64,000 nucleotides of DNA from Rickettsiales bacterium (GCA_018062985.1 JAGORE010000001.1:12661-76660); one strand, 5' to 3'. Positions 20,825 through 21,237 are shown, counted from the first letter of the stretch. A program made the numbers and translations. Notes: generated from the letters alone by a model not told the origin.

Positions 20825-21237
20825 ATGTTTATGAGGTCACCATTTTATGGGCAATGGCAAGCAAAAAGAGCTGCAGAAAAAGCTGTTAAACTAGAAAATG
20901 TTGCTGGCAGTGGAGGTGGCAATTGGAATAATGGTACCGGCACAGATTCTGATCTTCGTTATAAAGCGTATGAGCAGTACAAACAGTATCGGGTAGATAC
21001 GCATGTCCATCATCGGTAAGTCCGATATGGCAAGCAACTGAACCTTTTAAAGGCGGATACAGAACTAATGGTTTAAAAAGTAACAAAAGAGAGTATTATA
21101 GGTGGGATGAGAGGCATAAAGATGTTGAAATATATGACCACAACGCACGTTATCTTGGGTCAAAAGATCCTGTTACTGGTAAGGCATATAGAAAAGGAGA
21201 TATGAAAATAAATTTTCAACTAAAGGACTTAAAATGA
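20825..21237 (+). pseudogene. orphan toxin module with colicin-E3-like (16S rRNA-cleaving) cytotoxic domain, interrupted by a frameshift
   Basis: The 5' part (20825-21019) encodes MFMRSPFYGQWQAKRAAEK...GGGNWNNGTGTDS. The frame open from 20974 to the stop at 21235-21237 encodes PIWQATEPFKGGYRTNGLKSNKREYYRWDERHKDVEIYDHNARYLGSKDPVTGKAYRKGD. Compare colicin E3 RKIYEWDSQHGELEGYRASDGQHLGSFDPKTGNQLKG (from memory). Confidence 0.7.

Follow-up and report, generated by a model that had tools for sequence, protein, structure and literature searches.

An orphan colicin E3-type toxin cassette, very probably broken by a one-base deletion, beside an intact putative immunity gene in a Rickettsiales bacterium

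Colicin E3 cuts 16S rRNA at A1493/G1494, in the decoding centre. Three of its residues, D510, H513, and E517, are essential for its activity (PMC4905994, citing Walker et al. 2004). Toxin tips of this type have already been catalogued in polymorphic toxins, including alphaproteobacterial ones (PMC3482391), and orphan modules of a C-terminal (CT) toxin tip with its immunity gene are described from CdiA, Rhs, and MafB loci (PMC4436062). Here we describe a similar arrangement in a 64,000-nucleotide (nt) stretch of DNA from a Rickettsiales bacterium (GCA_018062985.1, JAGORE010000001.1:12661-76660). We call this stretch the window, and positions are counted from its first letter. We think it very likely that positions 20825-21237, with the gene directly behind them, belong to an orphan toxin-tip/immunity cassette of a Rickettsiales polymorphic-toxin locus, in which a colicin E3-type ribosomal RNase (rRNase) tip was recently broken by the loss of one A while the immunity gene was kept.

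We first consider the reading frames. On the plus strand, translation from the ATG at 20825 (frame 1) gives MFMRSPFYGQWQAKRAAEKAVKLENVAGSGGGNWNNGTGTDSDLRYKAYEQYKQYRVDTHVHHR, which begins with MFMRSPFYGQWQAKRAAEK and ends with DLRYKAYEQYKQYRVDTHVHHR at a TAA at 21017-21019. In frame 3, a stretch without stops starts before 20983, ends at a TGA at 21235-21237, and encodes TVSGRYACPSSVSPIWQATEPFKGGYRTNGLKSNKREYYRWDERHKDVEIYDHNARYLGSKDPVTGKAYRKGDMKINFQLKDLK. (By our rough estimate, the chance of an 87-codon off-frame stretch without a stop is about 0.001 at about 34% G+C.) An earlier reading of this DNA, made without database searches (the sequence-only reading), had proposed that an E3-like toxin frame is interrupted by a frameshift somewhere between 20974 and 21019 and that the toxin's stop overlaps the next start codon. 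Every one of its coordinates was correct. The TGA at 21235-21237 does overlap the ATG (21234-21236) of a downstream open reading frame (ORF) of 105 amino acids (aa), and the break does lie in the proposed interval, where we could narrow it to an apparent single-base deletion in the run of A at 20981-20983.

The ancestral frame is defined by three intact homologues. When the conceptually repaired product was used as the query in a word-indexed protein search, an intact 138-aa homologue (P0001, 65% identity) was found on a JGI metagenome contig, L001. In the DNA alignment, L001 has TACAAAACAG and the window has TACAAACAG, with one A fewer. Two more intact relatives, L023 and L027, were found via the immunity gene, and they read TATAAAACAG and TATAAGACAC at the break site. 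Across the three, the site is TA(C/T)AA(A/G)ACAG, with AAAA or AAGA in place of the window's AAA, and the proteins continue through it as ...EQYK-T-xS-xRYACP (...QYK-T-(A/P)S-(D/G)RYACP in L023 and L027). Because all three read in a continuous frame with the extra base, the lesion appears to be a 1-nt deletion in the window's lineage. The premature TAA lies 12 codons past the deletion. The cassette is left with a 5' part in frame 1 (20768-20982), which is a constant "pre-toxin" region recognized from its upstream in-frame translation and from alignment with full-length toxins, and with an rRNase domain (20983-21237, 84 codons plus the TGA) that is out of frame with its own 5' part. The constant region also has an in-frame 6-nt deletion at about 20873-20880, relative to L001 and the sister cassettes (EKEKAAK to EKAVK).

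The same run of three A is present in four assemblies from at least two pipelines. The window is 100% identical to contig JAHZTO010000391.1 of GCA_020049755.1, and the run is identical in GCA_020047435.1 (L005, with 1 mismatch in 1687 nt, elsewhere) and in the Logan assembly of SRR11088428 (L029). The fourth is the metagenome-assembled genome (MAG) record "Rickettsiales bacterium", which annotates two hypothetical proteins here, KBC27_00190 (64 aa) and KBC27_00195 (70 aa); our analysis corrects this public annotation, as the two are parts of one broken gene. Since the allele is shared by these four assemblies, which we compared at the assembly level, the deletion is very probably real and an assembly artefact is unlikely.

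We then examined the identity of the frame-3 piece, and we conclude that it is a colicin-E3/cloacin-type cytotoxic domain. It matches the Pfam family PF09000 ("Cytotoxic") with 30.8 bits, where the gathering score is 22 (E = 3.8e-7, covering positions 23-75 of the 80 in the profile). When we compared it by phmmer to all sequences in PDB, chains of colicin E3 were the sole matches (best E = 6.7e-4). In this alignment, the D, H, and E of the motif WDERHKDVE, whose position at 21103-21129 was confirmed by translation, correspond to D510, H513, and E517 of colicin E3. An 86-sequence alignment of relatives shows no variation at the H and E and almost none at the D. Among the auxiliary residues of colicin E3, whose mutation merely lowers activity, R495 is kept, E515 is replaced by D, R497 by N, and R545 by I. 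An AlphaFold2 model of the domain, with the 86-sequence alignment as input, is confident (pLDDT 94.6). The top four Foldseek matches of this model in PDB are all colicin E3 (probability 1.00, TMq 0.49-0.54, 28-31% identity), and every match below them has a probability of at most 0.16. The TM value is moderate because the N-terminal third of the domain differs. Both parts of the earlier proposal, the likeness to colicin E3 and cloacin DF13 and the retained D-x2-H-x3-E residues, therefore stand.

A profile built from the window piece and two homologues matched 673 representative proteins among 1.84 billion (E at most 1e-3). In the matches that we inspected, the domain is at the extreme C-terminus (for instance, residues 2668-2749 of a 2749-aa protein). 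When reference genome contigs were scanned with the toxin profile, a single locus (L006) was found, so this clade is rare in reference genomes. A search of NCBIfam gave no match for the toxin, the immunity protein, or the carrier.

The gene behind the broken tip (21234-21551, plus strand) is intact, as the sequence-only reading had said. Its 105-aa product matches PF22400 (DUF6980) with 52.9 bits (cut-off 27, profile positions 2-99 of 99). This is its one Pfam match at E of at most 1; neither the cloacin-immunity (Im3) family nor Imm45 is matched. Its closest homologues, which are 72% and 69% identical (in L027 and in L023-L026, respectively), lie directly behind intact E3-like tips with the same kind of 4-nt overlap, and two more distant DUF6980 proteins (P0161 and P0165) are also behind E3-like tips. 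In a survey anchored on the toxin, a DUF6980-like gene begins at the toxin's stop in 11 of the 13 distinct related loci that had enough downstream DNA. (One of these loci, L006, encodes a 1343-aa toxin with an E3-like tip and is from a Neisseriaceae MAG.) In a survey anchored on the immunity gene, an E3-like tip is directly upstream in 4 of 5 DUF6980 contexts. PF22400 matched 16 of the 17 proteins that we scanned, namely 13 from the toxin-anchored loci and the window's own four DUF6980 proteins. Because DUF6980 follows E3-like tips in most of the related loci, 21234-21551 is likely the cognate immunity gene of the E3-like tip.

This gene also seems to be maintained. Its dN/dS (the ratio of nonsynonymous to synonymous substitution rates) relative to its orthologues is 0.19-0.20, which indicates purifying selection. 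As read from the sequence, a motif that resembles a Shine-Dalgarno site, AAGGA (21223-21227, plus strand), lies 6 nt before the ATG at 21234. If the motif is functional, translation of the immunity gene need not depend on coupling to the broken toxin frame, and the gene could be translated without it.

Across the DUF6980 family, C54, C57, and G58 are invariant, C6 is nearly invariant, and the C-terminus is conserved (...EFKTDxWWKKRGL). An AlphaFold2 model of the window's protein, with database homologues as input, has a pLDDT of 78. Comparing this model to PDB gave no convincing match, Im3 included, and no link to CdiI or to other immunity folds. Literature searches for DUF6980 and for PF22400 found no papers. 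We see an even chance that DUF6980 is a widespread and undescribed immunity family for ColE3-type toxins, zinc-ribbon-like (given the invariant cysteines) and structurally unrelated to Im3; that in this Rickettsiales lineage, it was also re-targeted to a CdiA-CT-like toxin via its variable N-terminal half; and that the locus represents a new family of polymorphic-toxin carriers in Rickettsiales. We also noticed two unusual DUF6980 contexts. Behind the Neisseriaceae toxin (L006, 4222-4799) are two tandem DUF6980-like genes, the first of which (89 aa) does not have the C-terminal WWKKRGL end. A possible orphan immunity gene is in an endosymbiont of Glomus versiforme (GvMRE; L030, 2501-2875): immediately ahead of this DUF6980 gene, no gene is called on its strand. 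When read with translation table 11, this locus did not give the query protein.

The broken tip is not a stand-alone gene. It belongs to an orphan cassette within a chromosomal polymorphic-toxin locus, a point that the sequence-only reading had missed. The array, all on the plus strand, is headed by a full-length toxin gene (17916-19832, 638 aa) whose architecture is homologous to that of a 596-aa protein in L023 and whose own C-terminal tip is of another, unclassified kind. Behind it are four alternative tips, all 5'-truncated and each with a small DUF6980 gene, and the E3-like tip (20768-21237) is the second of these. The cassette's frame extends upstream of the ATG at 20825 to a stop at 20765-20767, after which it reads LNSPVVVESALESGFVLETMFMRSP, and the sister cassette has an equivalent in-frame extension from 21549 onwards. 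The LNSPVVVESALESGFVLETMFMRSP stretch aligns with internal sequence of full-length toxins (...TLESGFVLETMFYQSPLY... in L023, ...ALSSGFVW... in L027, and ...ALASGFVLNT... in the window's main toxin). All of the cassettes begin with this same stretch and continue to a Gly/Asn-rich junction (GGN..N.TGTDS), and the tips diverge beyond it. The constant region that is common to the main toxin and the cassettes runs from ...ALASGFVL... to GGNGGNSTGSD; its alignment can be summarized as ...SGFVLETMF.RSP.Y...GGN..N.TGTDS followed by unrelated tips, and the DNA repeats (D2 and D6-D9) agree. In other strains, the E3-like tip is joined to the long protein: in L023, it ends the 596-aa protein, which is homologous along its whole length to the window's main toxin, and in L027, it is fused to the same body (...GGNGGNSTSGD). 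Because the in-frame homology to full-length toxins continues upstream of it, the ATG at 20825 appears to be an internal methionine codon in a 5'-truncated fragment of an ancestral long gene. As the cassette is an orphan and 5'-truncated, it would give no deliverable toxin even without the frameshift.

The lesion seems to be young. Past the break, in the homologous frame, dN/dS is 0.118 relative to L027 (the closest intact copy) and 0.137-0.165 relative to L001; these values are rough, with dS near saturation (about 1-1.8). When L001 and L023 serve as outgroups, six amino-acid changes are private to the lineage of the window and another six to that of L027. By dN/dS and by the private changes relative to L027, there is no excess of amino-acid change and no relaxed constraint in the window's lineage. 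Because there is no sign of relaxed constraint, the deletion is probably recent on an evolutionary scale, and because the coding signature is still fully intact, the decay would be very recent.

Several points weigh against our interpretation of the locus. Besides the near saturation of dS, which makes the dN/dS values rough, two auxiliary residues of the domain are changed (R497 to N and R545 to I, both of which are also found in intact relatives), and this bears on our expectation that the repaired domain would be catalytically competent. In family searches, the carrier (17916-19832) matched no known trafficking family, and specifically not FHA, RHS, MafB_N, LXG, or PAAR. As for the deletion, assemblies alone may share a systematic error or may hide a minority intact allele, and the four assemblies may derive from one study or population. 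In L001 (422-979), the gene that overlaps the end of the intact tip by 4 nt is not DUF6980 but encodes a 185-aa ankyrin-repeat protein. Finally, DUF6980 is not strictly specific to E3-like tips: paralogues in the window, with a different N-terminal half, follow a CdiA-CT-like toxin.

The last two points fit the rival explanation that survives best, which is that the DUF6980 gene at 21234 is not cognate. The true partner would be an ankyrin-repeat protein, as in L001, and the DUF6980 gene would have arrived by cassette shuffling or would have another role. That the DUF6980 model has no solved structural relative and no tie to known immunity folds also fits. But the closest orthologues (69-72% identity) come after full-length toxins with intact E3-like tips, distant lineages (for example, the Neisseriaceae MAG and high-G+C contigs) have the pairing too, and the ATGA overlap is typical of toxin-immunity pairs, so we consider a non-cognate gene to be quite unlikely. 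The ankyrin-repeat protein of L001 may act as another immunity protein against this toxin, and one immunity family seems to serve two unrelated toxin folds. (In L001, a fragment of the 157-aa toxin described below comes after the ankyrin-repeat gene.)

A sequencing or assembly indel is another explanation, and the true gene would then be a continuous 138-aa cassette ORF. In its favour, a single homopolymer base makes the difference, the assemblies behind the window derive from metagenomes, and the downstream coding signature is perfectly preserved, as would be expected of an intact gene. But the run is just 3-4 bases long, and the identical A3 is found in GCA_020049755.1, in GCA_020047435.1 (whose one single-nucleotide difference is elsewhere), in the KBC27 MAG, and in the Logan assembly of SRR11088428, from at least two pipelines. 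We judge such an error to be very unlikely.

Programmed -1 ribosomal frameshifting or slippage (phase variation) might carry expression of the cassette past the break under some conditions, but we consider this extremely improbable. If the frame were shifted by -1 after the AAA codon, the homologous reading would be restored exactly, and the downstream RNA fold is somewhat better than that of shuffled sequences (z = -1.79). But TAC-AAA-CAG is not a slippery heptamer of the form X-XXY-YYZ, three A are too few for efficient slippage in transcription or replication, and the three homologues are in a single frame and need no shift. The fold is unremarkable, as 12 of 200 shuffles matched it. Because a slippery heptamer is lacking, the shift is not conserved, and the fold is ordinary, we rejected programmed frameshifting. 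An Rfam search of the region found no RNA element.

Could the 70-codon downstream piece, KBC27_00195 (P0005), instead be a small protein that is expressed on its own and has a separate function? The public MAG record does list it as a gene. But the called start is an ATA codon within the conserved domain, the conserved RYACPxxxSP N-terminal segment is not included, and no in-frame ATG, GTG, or TTG lies ahead of it. We rejected this idea, for which we see next to no chance, and we view the piece as simply the 3' part of the homologous toxin frame.

If the locus is, as we propose, an orphan E3-type cassette with a recently broken tip and a retained immunity gene, then it could work as follows. 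In relatives with the intact gene, the tip is the C-terminus of a full-length carrier, which would deliver the rRNase into competitors. There, by analogy with colicin E3, the rRNase would cleave the decoding centre of 16S rRNA and so bring translation to a halt. In the producer, the DUF6980 protein from the adjacent gene would bind the rRNase and neutralize it. In this genome, the tip has very probably lost one A at 20981-20983, and translation of the cassette's 5' part ends at 21017-21019. Should the broken tip be recombined onto the main gene, it would give a tipless protein. The tip in this genome would be a silent spare that has just been disabled. The retained immunity gene plausibly still protects against neighbours of the L023 or L027 type that deploy the intact toxin.

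The rest of the array is as follows. A small ORF right after the main toxin (19842-20156, plus strand, 104 aa, also a called gene) is, from its position alone, presumed to be the immunity gene of the resident tip, and neither its product nor the resident tip (about 19440-19832) has a family match; the one hit here is to SoDot-IcmSS, and it is below threshold (E = 0.003, 18 bits with a cut-off of 25). The carrier has a long middle that is rich in Pro and Ser and no recognizable secretion domain. Next is a 5'-truncated remnant of a 157-aa-type toxin cassette (20308-20733, plus strand), which includes the toxin's 3' end (20308-20373) and a DUF6980 gene that is in the public record (20425-20733; PF22400, 34.1 bits). 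It is recognized from repeat family D4, in which 20308-20444 is 80% identical to 21949-22085 and to 22784-22920. After the E3-like cassette are two more orphan cassettes (21609-23209, plus strand), identified by their ORFs, repeats, and PF22400 matches, with 157-aa toxins at 21609-22082 and 22444-22917 and DUF6980 genes at 22066-22374 and 22901-23209. These two cassettes repeat with a period of 835 nt and about 91% DNA identity. The tip of the 157-aa toxin matches no Pfam family and is similar to a CdiA-CT structure (5t87_E, E = 9.7e-5).

We made two other observations within the array. Sites that resemble sigma-70 promoters (TTGACT-16-TATAAT, 11/12) are at 21922-21949 and 22757-22784, inside the ORFs of the 157-aa toxins and about 120 nt before the DUF6980 genes. 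These may be internal promoters for the immunity genes; overall, scans for promoters and for terminators gave counts that were not above the expectation from shuffled sequences. And in L029 (1-1007, compared to 22830-23268 and 20825-21382 of the window), the frameshifted cassette follows a DUF6980 gene of the 22901 type (99% identical) and not of the 20425 type, which reflects either a different strain with a rearranged order of cassettes or the path that the assembly took through the repeats.

Elsewhere, the 23S and 5S rRNA genes are at 53623-56629, and the whole window is without a 16S gene, which agrees with the split rRNA operon that is typical of Rickettsiales and with the label of the MAG. 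A 1247-aa protein with C-terminal pentapeptide repeats (26214-29957, minus strand) adjoins cytochrome bc1 genes and could be effector-like.

As we interpret it, this locus is a textbook example of turnover in a polymorphic-toxin arsenal, in which a spare tip was lost and its immunity gene was kept, presumably as a defence against relatives; intact versions of the toxin are present in related metagenomic strains. The analysis also gives a functional hypothesis for the uncharacterized Pfam family DUF6980, as an immunity protein for ColE3-like rRNases, and it flags an unclassified toxin carrier in Rickettsiales. Its practical value is modest.

How does the locus compare to the known systems? The tip is most like the catalytic domain of colicin E3 and cloacin DF13 (PF09000, or "Tox-ColE3" in Zhang et al. 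2012, PMC3482391). The profile and the structure both match, with about 30% identity in the core; the domain is likewise at the C-terminus of modular toxins; and the equivalents of D510, H513, and E517 are conserved along with R495, while the change of E515 to D is conservative. Unlike colicin E3, which is encoded in a plasmid colicin operon, the window's domain is chromosomal and lies in a polymorphic-toxin array, and the downstream gene belongs to DUF6980 and not to the cloacin-immunity (Im3) family. The domain also differs from colicin E3 at R497 and R545, as described above, and its N-terminal third (RYxCxxxxSPxW) is specific to its own clade. The "second histidine" of Tox-ColE3 that Zhang et al. 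stressed (PMC3482391) is a tyrosine here (RYLGS). The CdiA-CT of Enterobacter cloacae (PDB:4NTQ), which is a 16S rRNase, is another contact-dependent tip that is reported to act like colicin E3, and it is a weak structural match to our model, at rank 9. Its probability is just 0.13 and its TMq is 0.37, however, and the window's domain is clearly closer to colicin E3.

The arrangement of the locus is most like that of the orphan modules in CdiA, Rhs, and MafB loci (PMC4436062). As in those loci, the cassettes lie downstream of a full-length toxin gene, on the same strand, and without the trafficking region; each starts with a stretch that is shared with the full-length gene and is followed by its own immunity gene; and the same tip is found on a full-length protein in other strains. 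The differences are that the carrier here (about 600 aa, with a middle rich in Pro and Ser) is not matched by any known trafficking family, that the host is a Rickettsiales MAG, and that this orphan is frameshifted. Overall, the decay seen here is nothing unusual for a bacterial toxin arsenal, and the feature belongs to a well-known kind; the consistent pairing of ColE3-like tips with DUF6980 is a modest addition and the sole mildly new element.
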